From NCBI GenBank assembly GCA_031287285.1, contig JAITTC010000267.1, positions 1 to 29,411 on the forward strand: a DNA stretch of 29,411 nt. Direction: 5' to 3'. Origin of the DNA: Christensenellaceae bacterium (GTDB lineage Bacteria; Bacillota; Clostridia; Christensenellales; UBA1750). Positions 4-25,768 of this stretch are shown here, piece by piece (the first letter of the stretch is position 1; every line of letters starts with the position of its first letter). The notes below the pieces were generated by a model. It was not told the origin of the DNA. It worked only from the letters and a program-made list of their open reading frames with translations, and searched no databases. Position numbers and translations under genes: made by a program.

Positions 4-450
4 ATGAAACGCATCTATGTGGATGAAAAGTGGTGCCTTGGCTGCCGCTTGTGCGAATACAACTGCGCTTTTGCCAACGCCACATCCGGCAGGGACGATA
101 TGGCCAAAGCCCTGAAAGACAGGGAGATTAACCCGCGCATCCGCATCGAGGAGGGCGGCGGTATCTCTTTTGCGGTTTCGTGCCGCCATTGTGACGATCC
201 TTTTTGCCAAAGGGCCTGCATTTCGGGCGCGCTGAAGTTCGAAGACGGCCAGGTGACCATCGACCAAGAAAAGTGCGTGGGCTGCTATTCCTGCATCATG
301 GCCTGCCCCTATGGCGCCGTGATGCCCTCTGACGGGGTGGCGGTGCAAAAATGCGATTTATGCATGCAAAACCACCAGGGTATCCCGGCCTGTGTGGAGG
401 GCTGCCCAAACCGCGCCATCATCTTTGAAGAGAGGGAGGTTTCCGCGTGA
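4..450 (+). CDS. Multi-[4Fe-4S] electron-transfer protein (DmsB/NrfC/CooF-like), likely partner of a split glutamate synthase
   Basis: Four Cys clusters: CLGCRLCEYNC, CRHCDDPFCQRAC, CVGCYSCIMACP, KCDLC...PACVEGCP. Stop overlaps next start (GTGA). The ATG is at the window edge, so the upstream context is not visible. Confidence 0.88.
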   Translation: MKRIYVDEKWCLGCRLCEYNCAFANATSGRDDMAKALKDREINPRIRIEEGGGISFAVSCRHCDDPFCQRACISGALKFEDGQVTIDQEKCVGCYSCIMACPYGAVMPSDGVAVQKCDLCMQNHQGIPACVEGCPNRAIIFEEREVSA

Positions 451-1685
451 ATTATCTCATCATCGGGGCCTCACATGCGGGAATTGCCTGCGTGGAGGGC
501 ATCCGCTCCCAGGATGCGGAAGGGCGGATCACCCTGCTTTCGAAGGAAGGGCACAGGCCCTATGGCAGGCCGCTGATCTCGTATTATCTAGAGGGCAAGA
601 CGGATCTTGAGCACATTTCGTATAGGCCCGAGAGCTTTTTTGCCGGCCATAAGGCGGAATTGCGCCTGAACACCGAGGTGGAGTCAATCGACGCCTCTAA
701 GAAGATCGTCCGCGCTGCCTCCGGCGAGGAATTCCCCTACGATAAGCTCCTCGTGGCGACCGGTTCGGTGCCCTTCGTGCCCCCGATGGAGGGGCTTGAT
801 ACCGTTGAGAAGAAGGTCGGCTTCCTGAACCTAGACGACGCCCTGCAGCTTGAGGGCCTGATCGACGAAAAAAGCCGCGTGCTCATCATCGGCGCGGGGC
901 TCATCGGCACCAAGTGCGCGGAGGGCATCGCCCACCGCGTGGCTTCGGTTTCAATCATCGAGATGATGCCGCGGGTGCTGCCCGCCGTGCTCGATGAGGA
1001 CTGCGCGGCCATCGTGCAGACCAAAATGGAAGAGAATAACTGCCGTTTTTATTTGGGCGATTCGGTCGAGCTCTTCAAGGGCAATACGGCAAGGCTCAAG
1101 AGCGGCAAAGAGCTGGAGTTTGACGTGCTGGTTCTGGCCGTTGGCGTCCGGCCCAACACGGCCCTTTTGCAGGCCGCCGGGGCCGAGATCGCGCGCGGCG
1201 TGAAGGTCGACGCCCACATGCAAACGAGCCTGGAAGGCGTTTACGCGGCCGGCGACCTCACCTTGAGCCATGACATCAGCGACGGCGGCAGCGAAAAGAT
1301 CCTGGCGGTTCTGCCAAACGCCTACACCCAGGGCTACACGGCCGGGCAAAACATGGCGGGCCTTGCCTCGAGCTTTGAAAACGCCTTCCCCATGAACGCG
1401 GGCGGCTTCTTCGGCCTGCATCTGATCACGGCGGGCAGCTACCAGGGCGAATGCCTTGTTTTGCCCAACGAAGGCGGCATCAAGAAGCTCTTCATCAAGG
1501 ACGACAGGCTCGTGGGCTACCTGCTGCTTGGCGACGTGCGCCGCGCGGGCATTTACACCTCCCTGATCCGGGATCAGATCCCCTTAAGCACCATCGACTT
1601 TGGGCTCATCGCAGAAAAGCCCCAGCTCATGGCCTTTTCTAAGGCCGAGAGGGCAATTATGCTAGCCGGAGGGAAGAGAGTATGA
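447..1685 (+). CDS. FAD-dependent NAD(P)H oxidoreductase (pyridine nucleotide-disulfide family, NirB N-terminal/rubredoxin reductase-like)
   Basis: N-terminal IIGASHAG FAD fold, LLVATGS, NAD-binding IIGAGLIG, VYAAGD. GTG start after GGGAGG. Confidence 0.9.
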   Translation: MNYLIIGASHAGIACVEGIRSQDAEGRITLLSKEGHRPYGRPLISYYLEGKTDLEHISYRPESFFAGHKAELRLNTEVESIDASKKIVRAASGEEFPYDKLLVATGSVPFVPPMEGLDTVEKKVGFLNLDDALQLEGLIDEKSRVLIIGAGLIGTKCAEGIAHRVASVSIIEMMPRVLPAVLDEDCAAIVQTKMEENNCRFYLGDSVELFKGNTARLKSGKELEFDVLVLAVGVRPNTALLQAAGAEIARGVKVDAHMQTSLEGVYAAGDLTLSHDISDGGSEKILAVLPNAYTQGYTAGQNMAGLASSFENAFPMNAGGFFGLHLITAGSYQGECLVLPNEGGIKKLFIKDDRLVGYLLLGDVRRAGIYTSLIRDQIPLSTIDFGLIAEKPQLMAFSKAERAIMLAGGKRV

Positions 1686-2398
1686 CGATTCAGGCAAGCG
1701 GCAAGGTTTTTAGGGCTTTAAACGAAGAGATCAAGGCTTCCCCCGCGGCGGAGCTCACCGTGACCGAGATCACGGGGCAGCGCTACATCGGCGCGGGGCT
1801 CTCGGGCAAGACGCTGACGCTTCAGGGCGTGCCCGGCAACGCGCTGGGCGCCTACATGAACGGCGCGAAGATCTTCGTGGGCGGCAACGCGCAAGACGCC
1901 GTGGGCGACACGATGAACGACGGCGAAATCGTGGTGGCGGGCTCCTGCGGCGATGCGCTGGGCTACGCGATGCGCGGCGGGCGAATCCTGATCAAGGGCA
2001 ACGTGGGCTACCGCTGCGGCATCCACATGAAGGAATATCAAGATAAGGTGCCCGTGATCGTCATGGGCGGCAGAGCTGGCTCCTTCCTGGGCGAATACCA
2101 GGCCGGCGGGCGCATCGTGGTGCTGAACCTGGCCGGCGAAACCCCGGTGGGCGATTTCTGCGCCACGGGCATGCACGGCGGCCGCATCTATGTGCGCGGC
2201 GGCCTTGGCAGCGCGGTGCTGCCAAGCCAGGTCGAGGCAAGGCGCGCAGAAAGCGCGGATTTGGAGCTGATTCGCGGCGATATCGAGGCCTTCTGCTCGG
2301 CTTTTGGCGGCGATGCGGGCGCGATTTTGCAAGAGGAGTTTACACTGCTTAGCCCAAACTCAAAAAACCCTTATAAGCAGCTTTATACCGTGTATTAA
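1682..2398 (+). CDS. Stand-alone GltB C-terminal (GXGXG / FwdC-like beta-helix) protein
   Basis: GQRYIGAGL, GVPGNALGAYMNG, GNAQDAVGDTMNDG, GNVGYRCGIHM, GSFLGEYQAGG, GMHGGRIYVRG repeats. ATGA overlap with the upstream gene. Confidence 0.88.
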   Translation: MTIQASGKVFRALNEEIKASPAAELTVTEITGQRYIGAGLSGKTLTLQGVPGNALGAYMNGAKIFVGGNAQDAVGDTMNDGEIVVAGSCGDALGYAMRGGRILIKGNVGYRCGIHMKEYQDKVPVIVMGGRAGSFLGEYQAGGRIVVLNLAGETPVGDFCATGMHGGRIYVRGGLGSAVLPSQVEARRAESADLELIRGDIEAFCSAFGGDAGAILQEEFTLLSPNSKNPYKQLYTVY

Positions 2399-2440
2399 GG
2401 CTTTTTTGCAGGTCTTTTTGCGCAAGGCCGCAAAAGCGGC

Positions 2441-2469
2441 TTGCATCTTTGGGCAACATCTTTTAAAAT
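2441..2469 (+). promoter_or_regulatory. Sigma-70/A-like promoter for the glnA-like gene
   Basis: TTGCAT (2441-2446), 17 bp, TAAAAT (2464-2469). Confidence 0.6.
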
Positions 2470-2504
2470 GATATGGGCCGAGAGCCCAAAGCATCGTGTT
2501 GATC

Positions 2505-2545
2505 GCCCCGCTCACCCGCCAAAGGCGCGCGGGGCCTTCTATTTT
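2505..2545 (+). terminator. Candidate leader terminator/attenuator upstream of the glnA-like gene
   Basis: GCCCCGC (2505-2511) pairs with GCGGGGC (2529-2535), followed by CTTCTATTTT. It lies between the predicted promoter and the RBS. Confidence 0.4.
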
Positions 2546-2570
2546 GCAAGCCATGAAGGAGGAACCGGCC

Positions 2571-3848
2571 ATGACCGAAAACCCCGGCGCATTCTTGGGC
2601 GAAAACGACGTGAAGTTCATTCGCCTGGCCTTCTGCGATCTGTTCGGCAGGCTCAAAAACATCTCCATCATGGCGGATGAGTTCGAGAACGTGGCGGCCT
2701 TCGGCAAGAGCTTTGACGCCTCGGGCATTTTTGGCTTTGTCGATACCAAGGGCTCGGATCTTCTCCTCATGCCGGATCTGACGACCATGGCGCTGCTCCC
2801 TTGGCGGCCCCAGCAGGGCGGCAGGGTCGCCAGGGTATATTGCGACATCCTGTATTCAAGCGGCGAGCCCTTCGAGCTCGACGGCAGGCGCATCTTAAAG
2901 AACAGCGTAAGGCGCCTCCAGGCGCTGGGCTACACGGCCAAGATCGCGCTGGAGTGCGAGTTTTATCTCTTCAACCTGGGCGACCAGGGCCAGCCCATTC
3001 TGGCCCCGCACGACCAGGCAGGCTACCTCGACTTTGCCCCGCTCGATAAGGGCGAAAATGTGCGGCGCGAGATTTGCCTGAACCTCGAGCAGATGGGGAT
3101 CAGGCCCTCTTCCTCGCTGCACGAATCAGGCCCCGGGCAAAACGAGATCGACCTGCACCGCAGAAGCCCCATCAAGATGGCGGATGCCTACATCGCCTTC
3201 ACGAACGTGGCCAAAACCGTCGCCTCGAGCTTTGGGCTCTACGCCTCGCTCCTTCCAAAGCCGCTGAAAGATAAGAGCGGCAGCGGCCTGCACGTTTCCA
3301 TCGCCCTTGAAAAGGATGGCGAAAACGTCGTCAAGGGCGAAGGGGGCCTGACCCAGGCAGCCCAGGCCTTCATGCAGGGGATTCTTTCGCGCGTGGCCGA
3401 AATCAGCGCCTTTTTAAACCCCCTGCCGGGCTCGTACTCGCGCCTTGGGCGCTTTGACGCGCCCGGTGAAATCTCGTGGTCGAACCAGAACCTGGCGCAG
3501 CTCCTGCGCGTGGCGCAGTCGGGCGGCGACCGCGGCGCCCACATCGAGCTTCGCTCGCCAGACCCTGCCATGAACCCCTACATCGGCTTTGCCCTGCTGC
3601 TGGAAGCTGGCGCCGAGGGCATCGAAAGGCAGCTTACGCTCCTTCCGGAGGGGGAGGTGCTAGGGAGCCTGCCGGGCAGCCTTGAAAAGGCGGTGGCCCT
3701 GGCGCAGGGTTCCGATTTGGTGAAAAGGGCCCTGCCTTCGCGCTTTGCGGAGCCCTTCCTCTCGCACAAGCTCGGCGAATACGAGAGGATGTTCCGCTCC
3801 GGCGACGCCGAGAGCTTCGAGATCGAGAATGACTTCCCCGTGATCTAA
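2571..3848 (+). CDS. glnA: Glutamine synthetase type I-like protein with degenerate catalytic motifs
   Basis: VKFIRLAFCD, FDASG, ECEFYL, HESGPGQNEID, PKP...GSGLH, IELRSPDPAMNPY. Start placed at ATG 2571 after AAGGAGG rather than 2496. Confidence 0.85.
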   Translation: MTENPGAFLGENDVKFIRLAFCDLFGRLKNISIMADEFENVAAFGKSFDASGIFGFVDTKGSDLLLMPDLTTMALLPWRPQQGGRVARVYCDILYSSGEPFELDGRRILKNSVRRLQALGYTAKIALECEFYLFNLGDQGQPILAPHDQAGYLDFAPLDKGENVRREICLNLEQMGIRPSSSLHESGPGQNEIDLHRRSPIKMADAYIAFTNVAKTVASSFGLYASLLPKPLKDKSGSGLHVSIALEKDGENVVKGEGGLTQAAQAFMQGILSRVAEISAFLNPLPGSYSRLGRFDAPGEISWSNQNLAQLLRVAQSGGDRGAHIELRSPDPAMNPYIGFALLLEAGAEGIERQLTLLPEGEVLGSLPGSLEKAVALAQGSDLVKRALPSRFAEPFLSHKLGEYERMFRSGDAESFEIENDFPVI

Positions 3849-3883
3849 ATCGCCTCGCTTAAGGCCGGAAAGGGGGTACTGCT

Positions 3884-4453
3884 TTGACCGGCGGCGCTTT
3901 GCTGATTTCCTCCAGCGAAAAGGGGCGCCTTGCCCTTCGCGCGCTGCTGGAAGAGGTTCGCCTTCCCTCCATCGAAACCGCGGCCTCCGGCAGCGAGGCC
4001 AGGCGTCTGCTCACGAACAGGCCCTTTTCCCTCGTGGTGGTCAATGCCCCCCTGAGCGGCGAAAATGGCTCGGAGCTCGCGCTGTTCGCCGCCTCTACCT
4101 TGGGGCTGGCTTCGATTTTGCTCGTTCGGCAGGAAGAACTCGACGGCGCGGCCGCCTCGATGGGCGATTCCGGCGTGCTGGCCCTTGGTAAGCCAATCAA
4201 CGGGCAGACCTTTTTGCAGGCGGTGCGCCTTGCGCAGGCGGCGCACGCGAAGATCGCCGCCCTGCAGGAAGAAAACCGCAGATTGCTTGGGCTTTTAGAA
4301 GAACAGCGCCTGGTGAACCGCGCGAAGTGGCTGCTGATCGAAAATAAAGGCCTAACTGAGCCGCAGGCCCACCATTTCATCGAAAAACAGGCCATGGATC
4401 AGCGCATCACCAAGCGGCAGGCCGCGCAAGATATTTTGGATTTATATATTTAG
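3884..4453 (+). CDS. ANTAR-domain RNA antiterminator with pseudo-receiver domain (AmiR/NasT/NitR-like)
   Basis: C-terminal LVNRAKWLLIENKGLTEPQAHHFIEKQAMDQRITKRQAA is a typical ANTAR domain. The N-terminal receiver-like fold has LVVVNAP at the phosphoacceptor position. TTG start after GAAAGGGGG. Confidence 0.88.
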   Translation: MTGGALLISSSEKGRLALRALLEEVRLPSIETAASGSEARRLLTNRPFSLVVVNAPLSGENGSELALFAASTLGLASILLVRQEELDGAAASMGDSGVLALGKPINGQTFLQAVRLAQAAHAKIAALQEENRRLLGLLEEQRLVNRAKWLLIENKGLTEPQAHHFIEKQAMDQRITKRQAAQDILDLYI

Positions 4454-4506
4454 GGCTTTGCCCTATCTCATTTTAACGAAGGAATCTTCAAGGAGGACGC
4501 GGGCAA

Positions 4507-6102
4507 ATGGTGAAATACATCTTCATAACCGGCGGCGTCGTTTCCGGTCTTGGCAAGGGCATCACAGCGGCTTCGCTTGGCAGGCTGCTGAAGGCCCGCG
4601 GCTTCAAGGTCAGCGCGCAGAAGCTCGACCCCTACATCAACGTGGATCCGGGCACCATGAGCCCCTACCAGCACGGCGAGGTCTTCGTCACCGAGGATGG
4701 CGCCGAAACGGATTTAGACCTTGGCCACTACGAGCGCTTCATCGACGAGGACCTCAACAAGTTTTCGAACCTGACCACGGGCAAGGTCTATTGGAACGTC
4801 CTCACGAAGGAGCGAAACGGCGAGTTTCTGGGCGAAACCGTGCAGGTCATTCCCCACATCACCAACGAGATCAAGGGCTTCATCCACTCCGTGGCCGAGC
4901 GTTCGGGCGCCGAGATCCTGCTGACCGAGGTCGGCGGCACCATCGGGGATATCGAAAGCCAGCCCTTTTTAGAGGCCATTCGCCAGGTGGCCATCGAGCA
5001 CGGCCGCGAAAACTGCCTCTTCATCCACGTCACCCTGGTGCCCTACATCAAGTCAAGCGGCGAATATAAATCGAAGCCCACACAGCACTCCGTAAAAGAG
5101 ATGCAGGCCATGGGCCTCTTTCCGGATATCATCGTGGCGCGCTGCGACGAGCCCCTGCAAGACGATATCGTGCGCAAGATCTCGCTGTTTTGCAACGTCA
5201 AGCCGGATTGCGTCATCCCAAACATCACCCTGCCTGTGCTCTATGAGTGCCCCATCATGCTCGAAGAAGCAGGCCTTGCGCGCATCGTGCTGCGCGAGCT
5301 CGGCCTGACCAACAGGGGGCCTGATTTGAGCGATTGGTACGACATGCTCGCGCGCATCCGCGCGCGCAGCAAGAATGTCAAGATCGCCTTGGTGGGCAAA
5401 TACATCAAGCTGCACGACGCCTACCTCTCGGTTGCGGAAGCGCTGCAGCACGCGGGCTACGAAAACGCGGCCACCGTCGAGGTCGACTGGATCGACGCGG
5501 AAGAGATCAGCCCTTTAAACGTGGGCGAAATCCTCGGCGGCTGCGACGGCATTTTGGTGCCCGGCGGCTTTGGCGAGCGCGGCATCGAGGGCATGATTTT
5601 AGCGGCGCGCTACGCGAGAGAAAATAAAATCCCCTATCTGGGCATCTGCCTGGGGCTGCAAATCGCGGTGATCGAGTTTGCCCGCCACGTGCTTCAGATG
5701 CCGGACGCAAACTCCCGCGAGTTTGCCGAAAACGGCCTGCGCAGCGTCATCGACCTGATGCCAGACCAACAGGGCAACCTGCCAAAGGGCGGCACGATGC
5801 GCCTTGGCGCCTACCCTTGCCAGATTAAGCCGGGCTCCAAGATGGCGGCTGCATACGGCGCGCCCCTCATTCAAGAGCGCCACCGCCACCGCTATGAGTT
5901 CAACAACGACTATCGCGAGGAAATGACCAAGCATGGCATGGTCTTAAGCGGCCTTTCGCCAGACGGCCGCCTGGTCGAAGCCATTGAGCTGCCGGACCAT
6001 CGCTTTTTCGTGGGCGTGCAGTACCATCCCGAGTTCAAATCCCGCCCCAATCGGGCTCATCCGCTCTTCCGGGCCTTCATCGAGGCCTCGCTCGAGCAAT
6101 AA
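4507..6102 (+). CDS. pyrG: CTP synthase
   Basis: [65 protein letters not shown]. Confidence 0.99.
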
Positions 6103-15728: not shown

Positions 15729-17168
15729 CTATAGCTCGCCGGTCCATTCCGCCAGCGCCAGGATGTAGATCTCGATTCCCTTGAGCAGGTCATCCACATA
15801 AAGCGCCTCATCGGGCGCGTGGGCACCGCCGTGCCCGGGCGGGAAGAGCGCCGGATCCTGCGCATGCCCTAAGCCCTTTGGCAGGCCCATGCCAAAGACC
15901 AGCCCGTTTGGCAGCTTGCGCGCGTAGGTGCCGCCGCTCATCGCGTAGGGCTCTGCCTGCGCGCCCGCGACCTCGTTAAAGGCCTTCGTCAGCGCCTTCA
16001 CCACAGGGCTTTCCTTGGGGAAGTGATTTGGCTTGTTCGCCTGCACGAGCTGTGCCTTGTAAGCGCCCCGTTCACAGGCCTTGGCGATGCCCGCCAAGAG
16101 TTCCTCGAGCTTTGCCGTGACGGGGTAGCGAATGTTGAACTGCAAGACGGGCCGTCTTTGCTCGTCAAGGCTCAAAAGGCTGCCCACGGAGGTCAGCGCG
16201 CCGCTGATCTCGTCCTCGCAGGCGATGCCAAAGCCGAAGCCGTTCAAGCCGATGCCCGCTTTGAGCAAAAACGCCAGGGCATTTTCGTCCCCATCGCCCA
16301 AAATCCCGGCGAAGAACAGCCCGCGCAGCAGCTTTTGGATGGCGTTCACGCCACCCTCTGGCCTGGCCGAGTGGCTGGCCACGCCGTGCGCCCGGATTTT
16401 GACGCTTTTTTCGCCATGTTCCGCCTCAAGGCCATCGGGAAGGCCCTTTTGGAGCTTTTCTGTAAGCGCTTCGCCTGCCTTCAGCTCGATTTCGGCCAGA
16501 TCCGGCACGATGTTGCTGGCCTGTCCGCCCCTGAGCGCCAAAACGGCCTCGCTCAAGGGGGCGTCACCCAAGAGCTTGATCTCGATGATGCCCTTTTCGG
16601 CAAAGCCCACGGGGAAGGAGCCGTCCGCCACCAACGACAGCGCGGGCGCCTCGTAGTTTGCGACATAATGCGTCGCATCGTCCATGCCCGTTTCCTCGCT
16701 GCAGCCCAGGAAGATGCGCAGGGGCTTTGCTGGGCGCAGGCCCAGCTCCTTCATCGCAAGCGCCGCATAGAGCGCGCCGACCGCGGGGCCCTTATTGTCG
16801 GCAACGCCGCGGCCGATGAGGTAACCCTCCTTTTCGATGGGTGAAAAGGGCTGAGCGTGCAGCCAGCCTTCGCCCGGCGGAACCACGTCCAGATGCCCCC
16901 AGATGCCGATGCTGCCGGGGGCCGTTTCGCCTTCGCCAAGCCAAAGCGCGCCGACCTTATAGTCGTAATTTTGCGTAAAAAAGCCCAGTTCCGCGCCGAG
17001 TTTCAAGGCCTCGTCCAGCACGTCGCGGCAGGCCTTTCCGTAGGGGCCGGGCTGCGCGCCAGAGTCGCTGATGCTTGGAATGCGCGCCAGCCGGAGGATA
17101 TCCCTCACGATCTGCGGCCGTTTTTCCTCCAGCCAAGCCCGCACGCTTTTTCGCGTTTCGCTGCTCAT
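15729..17168 (-). CDS. M20 metallo-dipeptidase (PepV/Sapep-like)
   Basis: GHLDVVP, GRGVADNKGP, GCSEETGM, ADGSF, SGGTYAR, AHAPDE. Confidence 0.9.
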   Translation of the reverse strand: MSSETRKSVRAWLEEKRPQIVRDILRLARIPSISDSGAQPGPYGKACRDVLDEALKLGAELGFFTQNYDYKVGALWLGEGETAPGSIGIWGHLDVVPPGEGWLHAQPFSPIEKEGYLIGRGVADNKGPAVGALYAALAMKELGLRPAKPLRIFLGCSEETGMDDATHYVANYEAPALSLVADGSFPVGFAEKGIIEIKLLGDAPLSEAVLALRGGQASNIVPDLAEIELKAGEALTEKLQKGLPDGLEAEHGEKSVKIRAHGVASHSARPEGGVNAIQKLLRGLFFAGILGDGDENALAFLLKAGIGLNGFGFGIACEDEISGALTSVGSLLSLDEQRRPVLQFNIRYPVTAKLEELLAGIAKACERGAYKAQLVQANKPNHFPKESPVVKALTKAFNEVAGAQAEPYAMSGGTYARKLPNGLVFGMGLPKGLGHAQDPALFPPGHGGAHAPDEALYVDDLLKGIEIYILALAEWTGEL

Positions 17169-17193
17169 AGAAAGCCCTCCTTCTCAATCGCCT

Positions 17194-18300
17194 TTAATCG
17201 AGTACGATCAGTTCCCTGGGGAAGTGGTTCAGCGCCTCCGCGCCCCTTTCGCAGGCGGCGAGCAGGTTTTCGATCCGAACGCCAAAGCGGCCGGGCAGGT
17301 AGATCCCGGGCTCGTTCGAGAACACCATGCCGGGGTGGATGACGGTCTTTTCGCCGTGCACCGCGGAGGGGCCCTCGTGCACGTCGAGGCCTATGCCGTG
17401 GCCGAGGCGGTGCGTGAAGAACTCGCCATAGCCCTGGCCCGCGATGTATTCCCGCGCTGCGTCGTCCACCTCGCCCAAGCTGCTGCCGGGCCTTGCCGCC
17501 GCCTCCGCGCGCAGATGCGCTTCTAAAACGATGTGATAGACCTTCTCAAACTCGGGCTCCGGCTTGCCGAAGTGAACGGTGCGGGTGATGTCGCTGCAGT
17601 AGCCCTCCACGCGGCCGCCAAAGTCCGCCAGCAGGCAGCTGCCGTCTTCAATGGGCACATCGCTCGTGCGGTGATGCGGCTCCGCGGCGCCCGGGCCCAC
17701 GGCGATCAGCGCGCCATAGGCCTCAAGGCCCAGCGCGCGCATCTCGGCGGTCAAGGCCTCTGAAAACTCCCTTTCGGTCTTGCCGATCCACTCGCGCCCG
17801 CGCTTTAAAACGGCGCGCAGGGCTTCGTCTGCCCCTGCGCTCGCCCTGCGGATGGCGCGAAGCTCGCTCTCATCCTTAATCAGGCGCTGCCCCTCGGTCA
17901 AAGCATCGCCAAGAACGAAGCTTGAGCCTGGCAGGCTTTGCTGAATCGCCAAGGCGAAGCGCGCGGGCAGCGAAGCTTCCAGCGCGACCTTGCAGACCTT
18001 GAAGCCGCGCTCTTCCAGCGCCGCCTTTAGCAGGGCGTAGGGGTTTTCGCCATCCGCCCAATAGAGCTTTTCGCCGATGGGCAGGCGCTCGACCTGCAGG
18101 CGATAGAGCAAATTGGCGATGAAAAAGGGCTCCCCCTCCTTTGGCAGCACGAGGGCGAGCAGGCGCTCGTCCCCGCGCGGCGGGTAGCCCGTTAAATAGA
18201 ATAGGTTCGAGGATGCGCCGGCCACGAACAGATCGACGCCGAGGCCTTGCATTTCCGCCTGCGTGCGGCGGATGCGCCCCTCAAAAATGCCTTCGTTCAT
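17194..18300 (-). CDS. Xaa-Pro peptidase (M24B, PepQ/PepP-like)
   Basis: Metal ligands in ADFGG, YCSDITRT, GHGIGLDVHE, NEPGIY and GVRIE. ATGA overlap with the oppF stop. Confidence 0.92.
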   Translation of the reverse strand: MNEGIFEGRIRRTQAEMQGLGVDLFVAGASSNLFYLTGYPPRGDERLLALVLPKEGEPFFIANLLYRLQVERLPIGEKLYWADGENPYALLKAALEERGFKVCKVALEASLPARFALAIQQSLPGSSFVLGDALTEGQRLIKDESELRAIRRASAGADEALRAVLKRGREWIGKTEREFSEALTAEMRALGLEAYGALIAVGPGAAEPHHRTSDVPIEDGSCLLADFGGRVEGYCSDITRTVHFGKPEPEFEKVYHIVLEAHLRAEAAARPGSSLGEVDDAAREYIAGQGYGEFFTHRLGHGIGLDVHEGPSAVHGEKTVIHPGMVFSNEPGIYLPGRFGVRIENLLAACERGAEALNHFPRELIVLD

Positions 18301-19256
18301 ATGAAGTTCGCCTCCAAGCTTTGATTCCAGGGGCTTTCGCTCCAGCGCGAAAACTGCTCGCCGGTGGCCAGCACGAAGTGCCCCTTTCCGGCCTGATGGT
18401 ATTCGCCCTCGCCGTAGTCGATCCCTTCCGCGCGAACGTCGTAGCGCAGGGTTTTGCGGATGCGCTCAAGCCTTGGATCGGGCCTTGGGATCGCGCTGAG
18501 CAGCGACCTCGTGTAGGGATGCGTGGGATTTTGGAAGATCGCCTCGGTCGGGCCGTATTCCACGAGCTTGCCGTAGTGCAGGACCCCGATTTGATCCGAG
18601 ATGTACTTGACCATCGAAAGGTCGTGCGAGATGAACAAGAGGGCGATCCCGGTATCGCGCTGAATCGCCTTCATGAGATTCACCACCTGCGCCTGCACCG
18701 AAACGTCGAGCGCCGAAATCGCCTCGTCCGCGATGATGAGGTCCGGGTTCATGATCAGCGCCCGCGCGATGCCCACGCGCTGCTTTTGCCCGCCAGAGAA
18801 CTGGTGCGGGAAGCGCAGGGCGTGCTCTGCGCTGAGGCCGACCCTTTCGAGCAAAGAAAAGACCCTTTCCTTGCGCTCTGCGGCGCTCCCGCATAGGTGG
18901 TTGATGTCAAGGCCTTCGGCGATTAAGTCGAGCACCTTGCGGCGGGGGTTCAGCGACGCGGAGGGATCCTGAAAGATCATCTGCATTTTCAGGTGGAGCA
19001 TCCTGCGGGTTTCGCTGTCGAGCCGGCCCGCGATCTCCTTGCCGTTGAAGGCGATTTGCCCGGCCGTCGGCTCATAAAGCCTGATCAGCGAGCGCCCGAT
19101 GGTCGATTTGCCGCTGCCGCTCTCGCCCACCAGTCCGTAGGTCTGCCCGCGCTCAATCGAAAAGCTTACGCCGTCCACAGCCCTGACGGTCAGCTTCTGG
19201 CTCAGCCTAAAGTGCTGCTTTAGATCCCTTACTTCCAACAGGGGCCTTGCTTCCAT
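18297..19256 (-). CDS. oppF: Oligopeptide ABC transporter ATP-binding protein
   Basis: GESGSGKST, QMIFQDP, FSGGQKQR, IIADEAISALD, ISHDL, HPYT. Start at ATG 19256 after AAGGAGGG. Confidence 0.92.
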   Translation of the reverse strand: MEARPLLEVRDLKQHFRLSQKLTVRAVDGVSFSIERGQTYGLVGESGSGKSTIGRSLIRLYEPTAGQIAFNGKEIAGRLDSETRRMLHLKMQMIFQDPSASLNPRRKVLDLIAEGLDINHLCGSAAERKERVFSLLERVGLSAEHALRFPHQFSGGQKQRVGIARALIMNPDLIIADEAISALDVSVQAQVVNLMKAIQRDTGIALLFISHDLSMVKYISDQIGVLHYGKLVEYGPTEAIFQNPTHPYTRSLLSAIPRPDPRLERIRKTLRYDVRAEGIDYGEGEYHQAGKGHFVLATGEQFSRWSESPWNQSLEANFI

Positions 19257-19285
19257 CCCATTTCCCTCCTTCAAAAAGGCGCTCG

Positions 19286-20374
19286 TCACGGCTTTGCAAA
19301 GCGCGGCGGCCGTTCGACCTTTGGCGCTTTTTCGTGCAGGAGCCAGGTCGCGGCAAAGTGCGTTTCGCTCACCTTGAACATCGGCGCTTCGCGCCGAAAG
19401 TCGATGTTCAGGGCGTATTCGTTGCGCGGGGCGAAGGGCTCGCCCACGGTTTCGCCCACCATGTTGGGCGGGTTGCCGGGGATGGTGTACAGCTCGCCAG
19501 AATCCATCTCCACATCCGGCATGGCCAGGAGCAGCCCCCAGGTATAGGGGTGGCGCGGGTCGTAGAAGATCTCGTCAGAAAGGCCTCTTTCGACGACGCG
19601 CCCCGCGTACATCACGGCGATCTCATCCGCCACCTTGGCCACCACGCCAAGGTCGTGGGTGATGTAGATCACCGAAAGGCCGAGCTTTCGCTGCAGCTCC
19701 TGAATGAGCTCGAGGATGCGCGACTGAATGGTCACATCAAGCGCCGTGGTCGGCTCGTCGCAGATCAGGATTTCTGGATTGCACGAGAGCGCCATCGCGA
19801 TGACCACCCTTTGCCGCATTCCGCCGGAAAGCTGGTGGGGGTAGCTCTTCATGCGGCTTTCGGCCTCCGGAATCTCGACGAGCGAGAGCAGGCGCACGGC
19901 TTCCGCCCTTGCCTGCGCGCTGCCCATCCCCAAATGGTCGCGCAGGCCCTCCATCAGCTGCTTGCCGATGGGCATCGTGGGGTCTAGGGAGGTCATGGGG
20001 TCTTGAAACACCATGGCGATGCGCTTGCCGTTGATCTCGCGGCGCATTTCGCGCCTTTTCAGCCCGAAAAGCTCGGTTTTTTTGCCGCCTGGGCCGCTTA
20101 AGACCGCGCTGCCGCTCTCGATGCTGGCGTTTTCACCCAGCAGGCCGGCGAGCGCCTTCACGGTCACGGATTTGCCGCTGCCGCTCTCGCCCACGATGGC
20201 CAGGGTCTTGCCCTTTTTCAGGTCAAAATCCACGCCGCGCACGGCGCTGACCACGCCGTAGCTCGTCTTAAAGCGCACCGAGAGATTTCGCACCGAAAGC
20301 AAAATATCATCGGCCCAAAGCGCCTCGTTTTGCGGGCTCTTCTGCCCGTTGTTCAGCTCGCTCATTCCGCTCAC
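19286..20374 (-). CDS. oppD: Oligopeptide ABC transporter ATP-binding protein
   Basis: GESGSGKS, MVFQDPMTSLDP, LSGGMRQR, DEPTTALDVTIQ, ITHDL, HPYTWGLL. Start is GTG 20374 or ATG 20365. Confidence 0.93.
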   Translation of the reverse strand: MSGMSELNNGQKSPQNEALWADDILLSVRNLSVRFKTSYGVVSAVRGVDFDLKKGKTLAIVGESGSGKSVTVKALAGLLGENASIESGSAVLSGPGGKKTELFGLKRREMRREINGKRIAMVFQDPMTSLDPTMPIGKQLMEGLRDHLGMGSAQARAEAVRLLSLVEIPEAESRMKSYPHQLSGGMRQRVVIAMALSCNPEILICDEPTTALDVTIQSRILELIQELQRKLGLSVIYITHDLGVVAKVADEIAVMYAGRVVERGLSDEIFYDPRHPYTWGLLLAMPDVEMDSGELYTIPGNPPNMVGETVGEPFAPRNEYALNIDFRREAPMFKVSETHFAATWLLHEKAPKVERPPRFAKP

Positions 20375-21462
20375 CTATCCTTCATCCTGGGGTCGAGCGC
20401 GTCGCGCAGCCCGTCTGCCAAGAGATTGAAGCTCAGCATCAGCAGCCCAAGCACCACCACGGGGAAGATCATCATATAGGGGTGCGCCGTGAGGGACTTG
20501 AACGAGTCCGAGATGATGGAGCCGAGCGACGCCATCGGCACGGGGATGCCGATGCCGATGAAGGCCAAAAACGCCTCTGAAAAGATCGCGCTTGGAATCG
20601 AGAACATCGACATGACCAGGAGCTGCCCGATGATGTTGGGCAGGACCTCCTTCGAGATGAGGAAGAAGGGCCGGGCGCCCAAGGTGCGCGCCGCCAGCAC
20701 GAATTCCTGCTCCTTGAGCTTGATCATCTGCGCTCTTGCCACGCGGCTCATGCCGATCCAGCCGGTGAGCATCAGGGCGAGGATGATGCTGAGAAGCCCT
20801 GGCTTGAGCACGATGATGAGCAAGGTGATGATGATGAGATTGGGGATGCCGTGCAAAACCTCGACGATGCGCTGCATCACCATATCGACCTTGCCGCCAA
20901 AATAACCGGAAATCAGACCGTAGCTCATGCCAAAGAGCATGTCGATCAGCACGGCGACCAGCGCGATGAACAGGGAGATTCGAGTCCCTTCCCAGGTCCT
21001 GGTGAAGAGATCGCGGCCGAGCACGTCGGTGCCGAACCAGTGGTAGACGGTTTCGCCGTCTTCGAGCTTTTCGTATTTGTTGACGATCTTGACGCCGGTC
21101 GACATCGGCACGGCCTCTCTGCCGTCTAAAAAGCCCAATTTTTCAAGGCCCTGGATGCGGGGGGCCATATTGTCATGCCCCGTAAGCTGCTGCTCGTAGC
21201 TGTAGCCGCTGACGAGAGGGCCGATGAGCGCAAACAGCACGATCAGCACGATGAAGAACAGCGAGCAGAGCGCGCCGCGGTTCCTCGCCAGGCGCCCCAT
21301 GGCCTCCTTGGTGAAGGAAACGGGCGAAATCGGCTCTGCGGCCAGAGCCGCAAAATCCCCCTCCGCGGCGAACTCAAAGTCGTGCTCGTCAAAGGCGAAT
21401 TCCTCGGCCGCGGGCGGTGTTGCCCCCGCGTGAAGCCGCGTTTCGGCGTTTTCAATCGTCAT
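20371..21462 (-). CDS. oppC: Oligopeptide ABC transporter permease
   Basis: HWFGTDVLGRD, GLISGYFGG, EFVLAARTLGA, EAFLAFIGIG, DGLRDALDP. Confidence 0.93.
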   Translation of the reverse strand: MTIENAETRLHAGATPPAAEEFAFDEHDFEFAAEGDFAALAAEPISPVSFTKEAMGRLARNRGALCSLFFIVLIVLFALIGPLVSGYSYEQQLTGHDNMAPRIQGLEKLGFLDGREAVPMSTGVKIVNKYEKLEDGETVYHWFGTDVLGRDLFTRTWEGTRISLFIALVAVLIDMLFGMSYGLISGYFGGKVDMVMQRIVEVLHGIPNLIIITLLIIVLKPGLLSIILALMLTGWIGMSRVARAQMIKLKEQEFVLAARTLGARPFFLISKEVLPNIIGQLLVMSMFSIPSAIFSEAFLAFIGIGIPVPMASLGSIISDSFKSLTAHPYMMIFPVVVLGLLMLSFNLLADGLRDALDPRMKDR

Positions 21463-22400
21463 GACTGCGAAGCCCCCTTTGCCAGGCGAATCCTCGGGTC
21501 GATGACGCCATAGAGGATATCCACCACCAGCATGATGGCGATGTACAGCAGGCTATATACGAAGGATAGCGCCGTCACCACCGAGTAGTCGTTGGCCTGA
21601 ATGCCCTCGACCAGGAGCTGGCCGACCCCGGGAACCGAAAAGATGCGCTCCACCACCAGGCTGCCGGTCATCAGCCCCACGACCAGCGGCGCCAGCACCG
21701 TGACCACGGGGATGAGCGCGTTGCGCAGCGCGTGGCGGGCGATCAGACGGAAGCCGTCGATGCCGCGGCTTTGCGCGAAGAGGATGTAGTCTGAGCTGAG
21801 GACTTCCAAAAGCTCGGTGCGGGTAAAGCGCGCGATGGAGGCCATGGTGAACAGGCTGAGCGCCACCGTCGCCAGCACCGAGGATTGAAAGGGCAGGGCA
21901 TCCTGATAGAGGATGGGGAACCACTTGAGCTTAAAGCCAAAGAGGTACGACAGCCCCAGGGCGAACACATACGAGGGAATGCTCACCCCGACGACGGAGA
22001 GAACCGTGCAGAGGGTATCCCAAATCGTGTTGTGCTTCAGCGCCGCCACGATGCCCAAAATCAGCCCGAGGAAGGTGCCCAGCAGGATGGCCTGGCCGCC
22101 GATGCGCATCGAAACCGGGAGCCTGCTGCTTAAAAAGCTCGAAATGGGCACGTTTTTCTGAATCGCGTAGGAAACGCCGAAATCCCCGCTGAAGGTGTTC
22201 TTCATAAAGTTCCAAAATTGCACCAGAATGGGCTGATCCAGCCCATATCTGGCCCGAAGCGTGGCGATCTGCTCGGGGGAAAGGCGCTCGTCGTTAAAGG
22301 GGGAGCCCGGCAGAAAGGTCATCAGCACAAAGAGGATCAGCACGATGAGCAAGAGCGTCAGCACCGCGATCGCAGCCCGCTTGAGGATGTAGGCTCTCAT
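21459..22400 (-). CDS. oppB: Oligopeptide ABC transporter permease
   Basis: RYGLDQP, GDFGVS, PSYVFA, DYILFAQSRG, HALRNAL, VERIFSVPGVG, DILYGVIDPRI. Confidence 0.93.
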   Translation of the reverse strand: MRAYILKRAAIAVLTLLLIVLILFVLMTFLPGSPFNDERLSPEQIATLRARYGLDQPILVQFWNFMKNTFSGDFGVSYAIQKNVPISSFLSSRLPVSMRIGGQAILLGTFLGLILGIVAALKHNTIWDTLCTVLSVVGVSIPSYVFALGLSYLFGFKLKWFPILYQDALPFQSSVLATVALSLFTMASIARFTRTELLEVLSSDYILFAQSRGIDGFRLIARHALRNALIPVVTVLAPLVVGLMTGSLVVERIFSVPGVGQLLVEGIQANDYSVVTALSFVYSLLYIAIMLVVDILYGVIDPRIRLAKGASQS

Positions 22401-22437
22401 GCCCTTACCCCCTCCTTTTTTAGTCTTTTACGCCGCA

Positions 22438-22471
22438 GGGGAGAAAAGGGGTTTTTTGCCCCTTTCTCCCC
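22438..22471. other. Intercistronic hairpin between oppA and oppB (mRNA-stabilising or partial terminator)
   Basis: GGGGAGAAA(A)GGGG / CCCCTTTCTCCCC. No U-tract on the coding strand. Confidence 0.55.
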
Positions 22472-22504
22472 GCGAAGCGCTTTATTTGGGAAGCCTGCGT
22501 TTGT

Positions 22505-24208
22505 TTATTGCTCGATCACCGCGTAGCGCGAGATCAGGGTGCCCGTGGTCGTGAACTCGATGCCCTTGACGTAGGGCTTGATGAGGTAAGCGTTGGCCTT
22601 TTGGTAAACGGGGAAGACCGCAGCGTCTTCGCCGATGATCTGCTCCGCGTCCTGCAGGGCCTTGAGGCGCGCCGGAATGTCGTTGATGAGCTCGTCGGAG
22701 GCGGACTTCTCAAGGCGGTCGAACTCGGCGTTTGACCAGCTGCCGTAGTTATAGGTGCTGCCGGTCAGGAAGAGATCGAGGAAGGTCGTCGCGTCTGAAT
22801 AGTCGGGGCCCCAGCGGGTCAGCGCAAGCTCGTAGTCGTGCGCCGCCATGCGCTCGACGCGGTTCTTTTTGGGCATCTGCTCGATGGTGATGGTCACGCC
22901 GGGCAGGTTTTCTTGAATCTGCGCCTGCAGGTACTGCGAGGCGTTGATGGTGGCTTCATTATCTTCCACGAGGAGGGTGAAACTGACTTCGCTTACGCCG
23001 AGCTCTTCCGGGGCCTTCTGCCAGTATTCCTTGGCAAGCTCCTTGTTGACCTCTAAAAAGGGCTTCGTCAGGTCGCGGAAGTCGGCGCCGTCTGCCGTGA
23101 TGTGGGTGAGCTTGGTCACGATATAGTCGGCGGGCACGGAGCCGTCCTTCAGGACGGTCTTTACCAGCGCTTCCTTATCGAAAGAGAGGGCGAGCGCCTT
23201 GCGCAGGTTGAGATTATCGAGCCCTGGAACTAGGACGTTCGGGCTCAGATACCACAGCGCGCCCGTTAAAACCGGGGTGAACTCCGGGGCGTCGCTATAG
23301 AGCTCGGCCTGCTCGCCGCCCAGAACCACCACGTCGATATCGCCGTTTTCATAGGCGAGAACGGCCTGCTGGCTGTCTTTAACGACCTGGTAGGTCAGGC
23401 CGTCCACGCTGATGCGATCGGCGAAAACATAGTCGGGGTTTTTAACCATCTCGATGAAGGTGGCCGAGGGCTGGTAGCTCTTGAGCAGGAAGGCGCCGTT
23501 AGAAAGCGTGGTTTCCGGCGAGGTGCCGTACTGGTCGCCCTGCGCCTTATAGAAGGCTTCGTTCACCGGGAAGAAGCTGCCCATCGCAAGAGCGGTTTCC
23601 ACGTAGGGGATCGGCCTTTCGAAGCGAACCTCGAGGGTCTTGTCGTCGATTGCGGTGATGCCAAGCTCTTCCTTTGGCAGTTCGCCGTCGATGACCTCAT
23701 CGGCGTTGAGCACCGCCGTGGTGCGCAGCAGGATGGAGTATTGCAGGGCGTTGGCCGGGTCTGCCAATTCGCGCCAAGAGAAGACGAAGTCATGTGCGGT
23801 GACGGGGTCGCCGTTTGACCAAACCGCGTCTTTTAAATGATAGGTGAAAACGAGGTTGTCGTCGCTCTTGTCGACGCTTTCGGCCAGGGCCAGGCGGGGA
23901 ACGCCGTCCGCATCGCGGATATACAGGCCCACGTTCAGGGAGCCGGTTACGTTCAGGGCGATGGTGTCTTCCGCCTTCAGGGTGTCAAGCGTGGCGGCTT
24001 CGCCTTCAAGGGCCAGATGCAGGATGTTCGGGCGCGTTTCGCCTGCCGAGGGCGACTCCGGCGCGGCAGCTGACTCGGTGGGCGCCGCCGTTTCGCCTGC
24101 CGGGGCCGAGGTTGCGGGCGAGGGGCTGGGCGATGCGCAGGCCGTCAGCGCGACGAAGAGCGCAAGCGCCAGCAGCAGGGAAAGGGCCTTTTTAGCTTTG
24201 CTTTGCAT
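22505..24208 (-). CDS. oppA: Oligopeptide-binding lipoprotein
   Basis: Lipobox VALTAC, WSNGDPVTAHDFVFSW, SNGAF, NLRKAL, WGPDYSDATTFLD. Confidence 0.92.
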   Translation of the reverse strand: MQSKAKKALSLLLALALFVALTACASPSPSPATSAPAGETAAPTESAAAPESPSAGETRPNILHLALEGEAATLDTLKAEDTIALNVTGSLNVGLYIRDADGVPRLALAESVDKSDDNLVFTYHLKDAVWSNGDPVTAHDFVFSWRELADPANALQYSILLRTTAVLNADEVIDGELPKEELGITAIDDKTLEVRFERPIPYVETALAMGSFFPVNEAFYKAQGDQYGTSPETTLSNGAFLLKSYQPSATFIEMVKNPDYVFADRISVDGLTYQVVKDSQQAVLAYENGDIDVVVLGGEQAELYSDAPEFTPVLTGALWYLSPNVLVPGLDNLNLRKALALSFDKEALVKTVLKDGSVPADYIVTKLTHITADGADFRDLTKPFLEVNKELAKEYWQKAPEELGVSEVSFTLLVEDNEATINASQYLQAQIQENLPGVTITIEQMPKKNRVERMAAHDYELALTRWGPDYSDATTFLDLFLTGSTYNYGSWSNAEFDRLEKSASDELINDIPARLKALQDAEQIIGEDAAVFPVYQKANAYLIKPYVKGIEFTTTGTLISRYAVIEQ

Positions 24209-24340
24209 GGTGTGGTTCCTCCTCTAGTATTTCGTATGCGTTCAGATGGTGAGATCCGGCTTCTTTGAAAGAGCAAAGGGGCCGCGGCATCGCTCCTTTT
24301 GGCCGAAGCGCCGGTGCGTGGTCATCGGAATTCTTTCTTT

Positions 24341-24375
24341 CCAAATAAGCATATCATTCATATATGTTTATTTGG
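24341..24375. promoter_or_regulatory. Inverted repeat just downstream of the oppA promoter (candidate operator)
   Basis: CCAAATAAGCATAT-CATTCAT-ATATGTTTATTTGG, 13/14 symmetric. Confidence 0.45.
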
Positions 24376-24387
24376 TATCTTTATCTT

Positions 24388-24415
24388 AGTATATTCACGC
24401 CCGCAGAACTGTCAA
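24388..24415 (-). promoter_or_regulatory. Promoter of the opp operon
   Basis: Minus strand TTGACA (24415-24410), 16 bp, TATACT (24393-24388). Confidence 0.6.
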
Positions 24416-24581
24416 CCGTTTTTTCTTTCGCGCATTGTAAAGTTTTTGCGCTTTTTAGCGAGCACCGCGGTAAAATAAAAGGGGCGCGTCCCTGCTGGGG
24501 CGCGACCTCATCGTCACAGGCCCTAGATTAGCACAAATGCGGCATTTCGTCAATGGCGCTCTTTCATTTCGGCCAAAAACA

Positions 24582-24590
24582 TGGTACCAT
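24582..24590 (+). promoter_or_regulatory. Possible extended -10 for the amidohydrolase operon
   Basis: TG-G-TACCAT about 40 bp upstream of the GTG start. The -35 match is poor. Confidence 0.3.
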
Positions 24591-24628
24591 AGGCGAAACA
24601 GCCACGCAAAGCTTAAGGAGGCGCCGCC

Positions 24629-25768
24629 GTGCAAGGCCCTAAAAACGCCCTGAAAACCCTGCGCGCACACAGGCGCGCGCTGCATCGAATTCCCGAAATG
24701 GCCAACCACGAATTTCAGACCAAGGACGCCCTGCTTTCTGCCCTTCGGGCCCTGAAGCCCGATCTTCTGCGCTGCTATGGCGGCACGGGAATCAAGGCCG
24801 TGTTCTTTTGCGGCAAAGAAGGGGCGAAAACCCTCGGCTTCCGCGCCGACATGGACGCCCTGCCCGTTGAAGAGAAGACCTGCCTTCCCTTTTGCTCGCA
24901 AAACCCGGGCTTTATGCATGCCTGCGGGCACGACGGGCACATGGCCTTGCTCCTGACCTTTTTGGGCTTCGTTTCCGCCAAGCGCCTGGAGCTTCCCCAC
25001 AACATCGCGGCCATCTTCCAGCCTGGCGAAGAAAATCTCCTCGGCGCGCGGGATATGGTGCGCGCGGGCATTTTAGAGGATCCCCGCGTCGACGAAATTT
25101 ACGGCCTTCATGTGATGCCAAGCTACAGGGCGGGCACCATCGGCCTTTCCGCGGGGCCGGTCATGGCCGGCAATACGAGCCTCGACATTCGCGTAATCGG
25201 CAAAAGCGCCCACGGCGCCGCCCCGCACCTTGGGGTCGACTCCATTTTGGCGGCTTCGCAGGTGGTTTTAAGCCTGGAGGCAAGGCTCACCCGCCTTTCC
25301 GCCGAGGAACCCTCGCTTTTAACCTTCGGGCAGATCGCGGGCGGCGTGGTGCGCAACCAGCTCGCCGGCGAAACGACGCTTCGCGGCACCCTGCGCTATT
25401 TCAGCCTTAAAAGGCGCGACGAGCTGCACCGGGTCATCGCAGAAAGCTCTTCCGCGGCGGCCGCCGTCTTCGGCGCCAAGGCGGAAGTGCTCTTCGACGA
25501 AAGGCAGTACCCCCCGGTCGTCAACGACGCGGCCGTGGTGAGCAAGGCGCTGCCCCTTCTTCCCGAGGGGGTGCTCGTTCCCCAGCCCCGCCAGATGATT
25601 GCCGAGGACTTTTCGTGCTATTTAAACGAGCGCCCGGGCTTTTTCGCCTTCGCGGGCGTTGGCCGGGGCGAGAGCGACGCGCCCCTTCATTCAGATCGCT
25701 TCAGCTTCGACGAGGAAGCGCTGCTTCCGGCGCTCGACTTCTACATTCGACTGGCCCAAAACCCTTAA
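24629..25768 (+). CDS. M20D amidohydrolase (N-acyl-amino acid amidohydrolase-like)
   Basis: RRALHRIPE, FRADMDALP, MHACGHDGH, FQPGEE, GLHVMP, AEDF, LHS. GTG start after AAGGAGG. Confidence 0.92.
   Translation: MQGPKNALKTLRAHRRALHRIPEMANHEFQTKDALLSALRALKPDLLRCYGGTGIKAVFFCGKEGAKTLGFRADMDALPVEEKTCLPFCSQNPGFMHACGHDGHMALLLTFLGFVSAKRLELPHNIAAIFQPGEENLLGARDMVRAGILEDPRVDEIYGLHVMPSYRAGTIGLSAGPVMAGNTSLDIRVIGKSAHGAAPHLGVDSILAASQVVLSLEARLTRLSAEEPSLLTFGQIAGGVVRNQLAGETTLRGTLRYFSLKRRDELHRVIAESSSAAAAVFGAKAEVLFDERQYPPVVNDAAVVSKALPLLPEGVLVPQPRQMIAEDFSCYLNERPGFFAFAGVGRGESDAPLHSDRFSFDEEALLPALDFYIRLAQNP

Follow-up and report, generated by a model that had tools for sequence, protein, structure and literature searches.

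A degenerate glutamine synthetase paralogue as a putative 2-oxoglutarate sensor for NitR-type antitermination in a Christensenellaceae bacterium

The locus and its genes

The window, that is the whole stretch of DNA analysed, comprises 29,411 nucleotides of contig JAITTC010000267.1 from a Christensenellaceae bacterium (assembly GCA_031287285.1). Its features around the gene under study are collected in Table 1. This gene is an uninterrupted open reading frame in which both Pfam domains of glutamine synthetase (GS) were found. On TIGR00653, the GlnA equivalog model, the protein scored 290 bits, which is under the cut-off of 429. Its closest solved relatives are the GS-I-alpha of P. polymyxa (7tdp, E 7e-84) and of M. 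mazei (8s59/8ufj). An AlphaFold2 model was obtained with a pLDDT of 92.6, and a Foldseek search with this model gave the M. mazei GS as top match (TM 0.92), methanogen GS-I-alpha structures lying at TM 0.92-0.93. This places the GS-like protein in the GS superfamily, with a predicted type I-alpha fold composed of a beta-grasp and a catalytic domain.

Longer versions of the protein starting at 2496 or 2553 were ruled out. A stop codon comes after the upstream in-frame ATG in the sister genome, which indicates that the start at 2571 is correct. The N-terminal helix had been described as short in an earlier sequence-only reading; the N-terminus is indeed shorter, but by 3-4 residues compared with the typical length. 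The region of the C-terminal helix (3770-3848) is unlike that of canonical GS-I, as it has a few additional residues and is without the conserved Trp-Glu motif. In GS-I this region makes the inter-ring contact of the dodecamer, and here it is a candidate partner-binding surface. Compared with the sister species, the gene has a dN/dS of 0.084 at a dS of 0.52, the value for pyrG being 0.081. The GS-like gene is under strong purifying selection.

Table 1. Features of the window in and around the GS-like gene (residue numbers in the first column are those of the GS-like protein unless otherwise stated; Mt, M. thermolithotrophicus; Mm, M. mazei)
Feature	Position	Strand	Basis
4Fe-4S ferredoxin-like subunit of GOGAT cluster	4..450	+	domain search; order in relatives
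FAD/NAD(P) oxidoreductase of GOGAT cluster	447..1685	+	PF07992
GXGXG-domain glutamate synthase subunit (gltB3), last gene of split GOGAT cluster	1682..2398	+	PF01493; same order in relatives
Tentative promoter (weak -35 at 2441, TAAAAT at 2464) and terminator-like stem 2505-2535 with C-AAAGGC-G at 2520-2527	2441..2545	+	
GS-I-alpha-like protein, 425 aa; degenerate active site, full putative 2-oxoglutarate pocket	2571..3848	+	PF03951 + PF00120
F16 and R18, predicted 2-oxoglutarate pocket (Mt F18, R20)	2616..2624	+	PMC10799026; alignments
D58 replacing glutamine-feedback Arg62	2742..2744	+	alignments; R62 missing in 123/123 clade members
R79, pocket arginine missing in 2-oxoglutarate-insensitive Bacillus-type GS (Mt R88, Mm R87)	2805..2807	+	alignments
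R165, R166 and S182, predicted 2-oxoglutarate pocket (Mt R174, R175, S191)	3063..3116	+	alignments
D296 replacing Glu304 flap glutamate	3456..3458	+	alignments
L308 replacing catalytic Arg316	3492..3494	+	alignments
NitR-type pseudo-receiver and ANTAR antiterminator, 189 aa, Asn54 at phospho-acceptor position	3884..4453	+	PF03861; weak PF00072

A family search of the genome, which is 88% complete, revealed two GS genes, and the 97%-complete sister genome likewise contains only these two. The sequence-only reading had proposed looking for a canonical glnA or glnN elsewhere in the genome, and an intact one is present: the second gene, on contig C169, encodes a type III GS (glnN, 697 aa) whose catalytic motifs are readable. 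It is divergent from gltB1-gltB2-purA. These genes form one contiguous region with those of the window in the sister genome, in the order glnN, gltB1, gltB2, purA, ferredoxin, oxidoreductase, gltB3, GS-like gene, ANTAR gene, pyrG and dapL. In all 20 regions excised from relatives glnN adjoins the GS-like gene, these regions having been picked for matching both. In many loci the GOGAT cluster ends with the GS-like gene. Elsewhere in the genome, contig C176 carries an amtB gene with a C-terminally fused PII (GlnK-like) domain (about 569 aa, the PII part judged by eye). Further along the window, 15729-25768 holds a peptide-use cluster, in which a family-5 solute-binding protein is encoded along with peptidases of the M20 and M24 families.

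Directly 3' of the GS-like gene lies the receiver-ANTAR open reading frame, a candidate partner that the sequence-only reading had not named. It could be aligned to 1s8n and AmiR and was the sole ANTAR gene found in a search of the genome. The phospho-acceptor column is Asn in 87 and Asp in 13 of 110 relatives. As the protein of the window has Asn at this position, it cannot be driven by a kinase. Pseudo-receiver ANTAR proteins take their control from a modulator protein, AmiC in the case of AmiR (PMC3369931). Of the clade loci whose flank is long enough, 118/119 have an ANTAR gene directly after the GS-like gene; for the metagenome loci among them the count is 73/74. The linkage was also approached from the other side, by a reciprocal search of 400 genomes of the phylum: of the 26 other best matches of the NitR type, 21 have a GS-like gene with a full or near-full 2-oxoglutarate pocket directly upstream, four (L186-L189) are without a GS within 1.5 kb and one is ambiguous. 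The sensor of the four may be located elsewhere in their genomes. The ANTAR linkage of one further GS locus (L044) was distrusted, as it rests on a weak match (E 4e-4). Prediction of a complex of two ANTAR chains with one GS-like chain, from paired alignments of about 100 rows, gave a score of 0.18 against a mark of 0.32.

The ANTAR-linked GS-like proteins form one branch of the GS tree (SH-aLRT 100), apart from intact GS-I, and the gene of the window has a long branch in this tree. Three more GS of the intact type with an ANTAR neighbour fall outside the clade. One locus of another genome, L045 (G051:C95), encodes a fully intact GS-I-alpha with R62, the 2-oxoglutarate pocket and an ANTAR neighbour; it scores 583 bits on TIGR00653, above the cut-off, and no other GS was found in its genome. 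On this midpoint-rooted tree, L045 suggests that an active GS-NitR pair was the ancestral state.

Active-site and pocket residues

The GS-like protein was aligned by HMMER to P. polymyxa 7tdp and M. mazei 8s59/8ufj, through which the B. subtilis numbering was carried over, and the register was compared with the M. mazei numbering D57, R66, R87, R172 and S189 (PMC11957540). D53, E132, E134, Y156, E189, E196, G241, H245, R298, R321, E333 and R335 are kept. The metal ligands (E132, E134, E189, E196, H245 and E333) are all present, as the sequence-only reading had stated. That reading had further reported changes at the Glu304 flap, at Arg316 and at the feedback residues Arg62/Glu65, and a deletion in the Tyr373 loop region, all of which were borne out by the alignments: E304 is replaced by D296, R316 by L308, R62 by D58 and E65 by G61, and about 14 residues spanning Tyr373 are missing. 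Y303 is replaced by F295. The substitutions E184 to S180, Y201 to R197, N247 to S243, S249 to A245 and R331 to H324 fall in the lining of the nucleotide (adenine) site, Y201 being the adenine-stacking aromatic, and had gone unnoticed in the sequence-only reading. At the positions that would mark a GlnA equivalog, catalytic E304 and R316 and adenine-site Y201, S249 and R331, the protein has D296, L308, R197, A245 and H324.

The same changes, including E304D and R316L, were found in the 92% identical protein of the sister genome (L003/P0003, also Christensenellaceae), which excludes a sequencing error. Among the 120 nearest proteins E304 is retained in 108 and R316 in 116, and by these alignments the two changes are restricted to the protein's own lineage. 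The substitution of Asn240 (S236) noted in the sequence-only reading is also real, but is no sign of inactivity: N240 is missing in 20/24 otherwise intact GS-I relatives, so that it carries no weight and was dropped as a marker. In intact clostridial GS-I (L041-L064) the position is mostly Ala, Ser or Cys. R316 is a key catalytic residue of GS (PMC9249791), and in E. coli GS the change R339C at the equivalent position affected kcat (down) and Km (up) 40-100-fold (PMC12018205). Judged from these residues, the GS-like protein is very probably strongly impaired as a GS. The loss of R316, the eroded adenine site and the intact type III GS in the genome are in favour of the binding-only role that had been suggested.

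In methanogen GS, 2-oxoglutarate is bound in a pocket made up of F18, R20, R88, R174, R175 and S191, positions 34 and 94 being other than Glu. Bacillus-type GS do not have this pocket; the same authors caution that the pocket motif is no proof of an effect of 2-oxoglutarate (PMC10799026). The GS-like protein carries every feature of this pocket (F16, R18, S32, R79, V86, R165, R166 and S182). Counted over kin and near-duplicates, so that the fractions are non-independent samples, the full pocket is present in 118/123 proteins of the clade and in 8/24 non-ANTAR GS-I, whereas 12 core catalytic residues are all present in 70/123 and 23/24, respectively. This implies that the allosteric pocket is under tighter selective constraint than the active site. 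The catalytic losses make up about 20 distinct lesion patterns, some with Lys or Ala in place of a metal ligand, and close relatives of the window protein have lost such ligands outright (E132K; E189K; E132A/E134A/E189A). The clearest case of a dead enzyme is a clade member from genome G028 (L070/L086), with E132A, E134A and E189A and an intact pocket. These losses go against the idea, held in the sequence-only reading, of the metal/glutamate site as the preserved feature, and indicate that the site preserved by the family is the 2-oxoglutarate pocket. Its presence in 8/24 non-ANTAR GS-I means that the pocket could also be an activator site or structural. Taken together, these sequence comparisons make 2-oxoglutarate a somewhat better than even candidate for the ligand of the GS-like protein.

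Since the core residues are complete in 70/123 members, the clade is not uniformly dead. The window protein could then be a slow but real GS that is switched on by 2-oxoglutarate like methanogen GS-I-alpha, and possibly be a regulator as well (a trigger enzyme). The metal ligands, D53, Y156, R298, R321 and R335 are all in place, and in the genome of L045, which is intact and has the pocket and an ANTAR neighbour, no second GS was found. This reading is nevertheless considered improbable, because R316, E304, S249, R331 and the adenine-stacking aromatic are all missing at once from the copy in the window, because metal ligands are lost in close relatives, and because an intact type III GS is available.

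Alternatively, the protein could be a NitR sensor that reads glutamine or glutamate, not 2-oxoglutarate, in what remains of the active site. Bacillus GS signals via glutamine (PMC9249791), and E132, E134, E189, E196, G241, H245, R298 and R335 are kept in the window protein, of which E196 and R298 are invariant in the ANTAR-linked proteins. However, the glutamine lock requires both R62 and E304, which are missing in 123/123 and 45/123 clade members, respectively. The complete absence of R62 makes glutamine sensing of the Bacillus type unlikely, and Lys or Ala at metal ligands in several relatives speaks against a ligand held there. This possibility is therefore also rated as rather improbable, and 2-oxoglutarate is retained as the favoured ligand.

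Leader hairpins as predicted RNA targets

ANTAR-type hairpins were sought as a six-base loop with A1, G4 and a closing C-G pair, a 3-bp stem being demanded in the strict test. Such a hairpin was found 5' of glnN in 21/24 loci and 5' of gltB1 in 21/24 (1.4 and 1.7 in shuffles), and is followed by a T tract in 18 and 20 of these leaders, respectively. Among control leaders it was found in 0/12 for purA and 1/33 for gltB3. The hairpin is located 11-24 nt downstream of a sigma-70-type -10 box. A second hairpin further downstream was present in 5/21 and 7/21 leaders, compared with 2.5 and 2.8 expected by chance, and upstream of the first the -10 box leaves little space for another. The ANTAR-type target in the glnN and gltB1 leaders (L072-L090; also C169:4284 and C176:3211) thus appears to be mostly a single hairpin, unlike the published dual-hairpin model. 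In an Rfam search of four loci containing the leaders, no family was found for the hairpin, a tmRNA being the sole match.

A motif scan of the whole genome gave 117 raw hairpin matches, mostly due to chance, which were kept if a promoter and/or a pairing terminator was present. In the genome of the window the hairpin precedes glnN (C169:4284), the amtB-glnK fusion (L092, C176:3211) and an opp/dpp-type peptide ABC operon (L215, C22:1191), where it is accompanied by a strong terminator and has no promoter match. The last of these would extend the regulon to the uptake of organic nitrogen. In each of these three leaders the hairpin is absorbed by a terminator in the fold of lowest energy, and the two structures exclude each other. 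The hairpin was also found in the sister genome, before glnN and an amtB gene. A strict hairpin was not found in the gltB1 leader of the window genome (L002, C169:3880-4140), in which a block of about 60 nt around a TTGACA box is identical in the sister genome. The leader of the GS-like gene itself contains a terminator-like stem that folds and is conserved, with its loop, in L003; its C-AAAGGC-G element fails the strict test for a 3-bp stem. Scanning 2350-4600 gave no promoter at threshold, the putative promoter at 2441/2464 being below it. Several intact clostridial GS-I have an ANTAR-type hairpin and terminator in their own leader (L026, L043, L044, L046-L048).

A proposed GS-derived sensor for NitR and its relation to known systems

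NitR antiterminates the genes for GS and GOGAT under nitrogen limitation (PMC6316151, PMC4676874), by a mechanism that has been termed not fully understood (PMC6316151). We consider it likely, on the comparisons given above, that the GS-like protein is a catalytically disabled GS through which 2-oxoglutarate is sensed and antitermination by NitR is controlled; that it is a dedicated regulator of NitR, whatever its ligand, is rated as probable. Glutamine would be made by the type III GS, and the GS-I-alpha paralogue would be kept as the signal-input subunit of NitR. The protein is predicted to fold, and would oligomerize, like GS-I-alpha. 2-Oxoglutarate, as the signal of nitrogen starvation, would bind in the inter-subunit pocket and shift the conformation as it does in methanogen GS. 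The GS-like protein would contact the co-encoded ANTAR protein and most likely hold it inactive at high nitrogen, and rising 2-oxoglutarate would free the ANTAR protein, as is the case with AmiC-AmiR and NasS-NasT. The freed protein would then bind the hexaloop hairpin just past the promoter and block the overlapping terminator. Predicted targets are glnN, amtB-glnK and the peptide ABC operon, to which gltB is added in most relatives.

The analogy with AmiC and NasS, together with the phenotype of a glnA deletion in C. thermocellum, favours sequestration of NitR over its activation, but the probability of sequestration is put at slightly short of even. In C. thermocellum the gene order is the same, glnA lying beside an ANTAR gene (PMC4676874, PMC9888227). 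According to the account of Rydzak 2017 given in PMC10967112, deletion of this glnA caused a nitrogen-starvation response despite raised glutamine. This phenotype fits the loss of a negative regulator. In the same account 2-oxoglutarate was raised too, so that the phenotype could be indirect. The GlnA of C. thermocellum and of C. saccharobutylicum are likened here to the clade by their gene order.

It could also be that the GS-like protein has some other non-catalytic task, as a scaffold, in a GOGAT complex or as a partner of PII, and that nitR receives its signal from elsewhere, for instance from GlnK. The position of the GS-like gene at the end of GOGAT clusters, the AmtB-PII fusion in the genome and the NitR genes without a GS neighbour would agree with this. 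On the other hand, the pair of GS-like and ANTAR genes persists in loci away from the GOGAT genes (L006, L007, L020-L022, L025 and L085) and the Asn receiver is beyond the reach of any kinase, which makes such a task decidedly unlikely. The altered chemistry that the sequence-only reading had left as an option, for instance that of a gamma-glutamyl-amine ligase, found no support and is considered very unlikely. Ligases of this kind (GlnA2/PuuA type) share the GS fold, the altered Glu304 flap and the changed Tyr373 loop, but R339 is retained in them whereas D50 and Y179 are lost, the reverse of what is seen here (PMC8394153). Moreover, the protein scored 165 bits on the NCBIfam model GGputSyn against a cut-off of 650, no amine catabolism genes were recognized beside the gene in the window or in the relatives' loci, and the lesions vary among lineages without convergence. 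Decay of a redundant glnA, to which the many substitutions, the type III GS and the long branch might point, was rejected, largely on the low dN/dS (0.084 at dS 0.52) and also because the frame is intact, the fold confident and the lesions common to the sister species.

With a GS-derived sensor gating NitR as the preferred explanation, it is conceivable, at somewhat less than even odds, that many Clostridia and some spirochaetes use a GS paralogue as a dedicated 2-oxoglutarate receptor for a kinase-independent ANTAR antiterminator, which would act on a promoter-proximal RNA switch of mostly one hairpin. Nitrogen control would then follow a route distinct from NtrBC/PII and from GlnR/TnrA, and the nitrogen sensing of NitR would be accounted for. 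Many genes of gut and rumen Clostridia annotated as glutamine synthetase may be regulators. It would also be explained why the glnA deletion in C. thermocellum, according to the account cited above, raises glutamine and yet brings on a starvation response, which bears on the design of biofuel strains. As a sensor and a ligand can be named as candidates, along with six residues of the pocket and the RNA targets, the question of how NitR perceives nitrogen is directly testable, for which L045, possibly representing the ancestral state, is a good control protein. GS as a sensor, ANTAR pseudo-receivers and the 2-oxoglutarate pocket are each known, and their combination is new to the searchable literature: no degenerate GS as NitR sensor and no GS pseudoenzyme with an ANTAR partner was found, subscription papers being outside the reach of this search.

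The closest fold is that of the 2-oxoglutarate-activated methanogen GS-I-alpha (M. thermolithotrophicus 8ooq and M. mazei GlnA1 8s59), with which every pocket residue is shared. Those proteins are active, have intact equivalents of E304 and R316 and are described without an ANTAR partner, whereas the GS-like protein is degenerate and has an ANTAR neighbour. In B. subtilis GS-TnrA/GlnR a GS-I-alpha likewise serves as nitrogen sensor for a gene regulator by protein contact, as is proposed for the window. B. subtilis GS is, however, an active enzyme that reads glutamine through R62 and E304 and binds DNA-binding regulators via R62 and R316 (PMC9249791), while in the GS-like protein R62, E304 and R316 are all lost and the partner is of the RNA-binding type. 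In AmiC-AmiR of P. aeruginosa (PMC3369931) and NasS-NasT of Paracoccus (PMC3795266), a pseudo-receiver ANTAR protein is likewise paired with a co-encoded ligand-binding protein, the binding of a ligand being putative here. In common with these systems, the ANTAR protein of the window is co-encoded and has a non-phosphorylatable receiver, and an A1/G4 hexaloop hairpin overlaps a terminator; their RNA targets are dual hairpins, whereas here mostly one hairpin is found. The sensors AmiC and NasS have solute-binding-protein folds and are not enzyme paralogues. Nearest in gene order is the clostridial glnA-nitR pair (C. saccharobutylicum NCP262 GlnA/NitR; C. thermocellum Clo1313_2031/2030), in which, as in the window, a GS-I-alpha gene is followed by a receiver-ANTAR gene in a GS/GOGAT cluster. 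GlnA is taken there as the enzyme (PMC6316151), whereas in the genome of the window the GS-I copy is degenerate and the type III GS is the intact enzyme.
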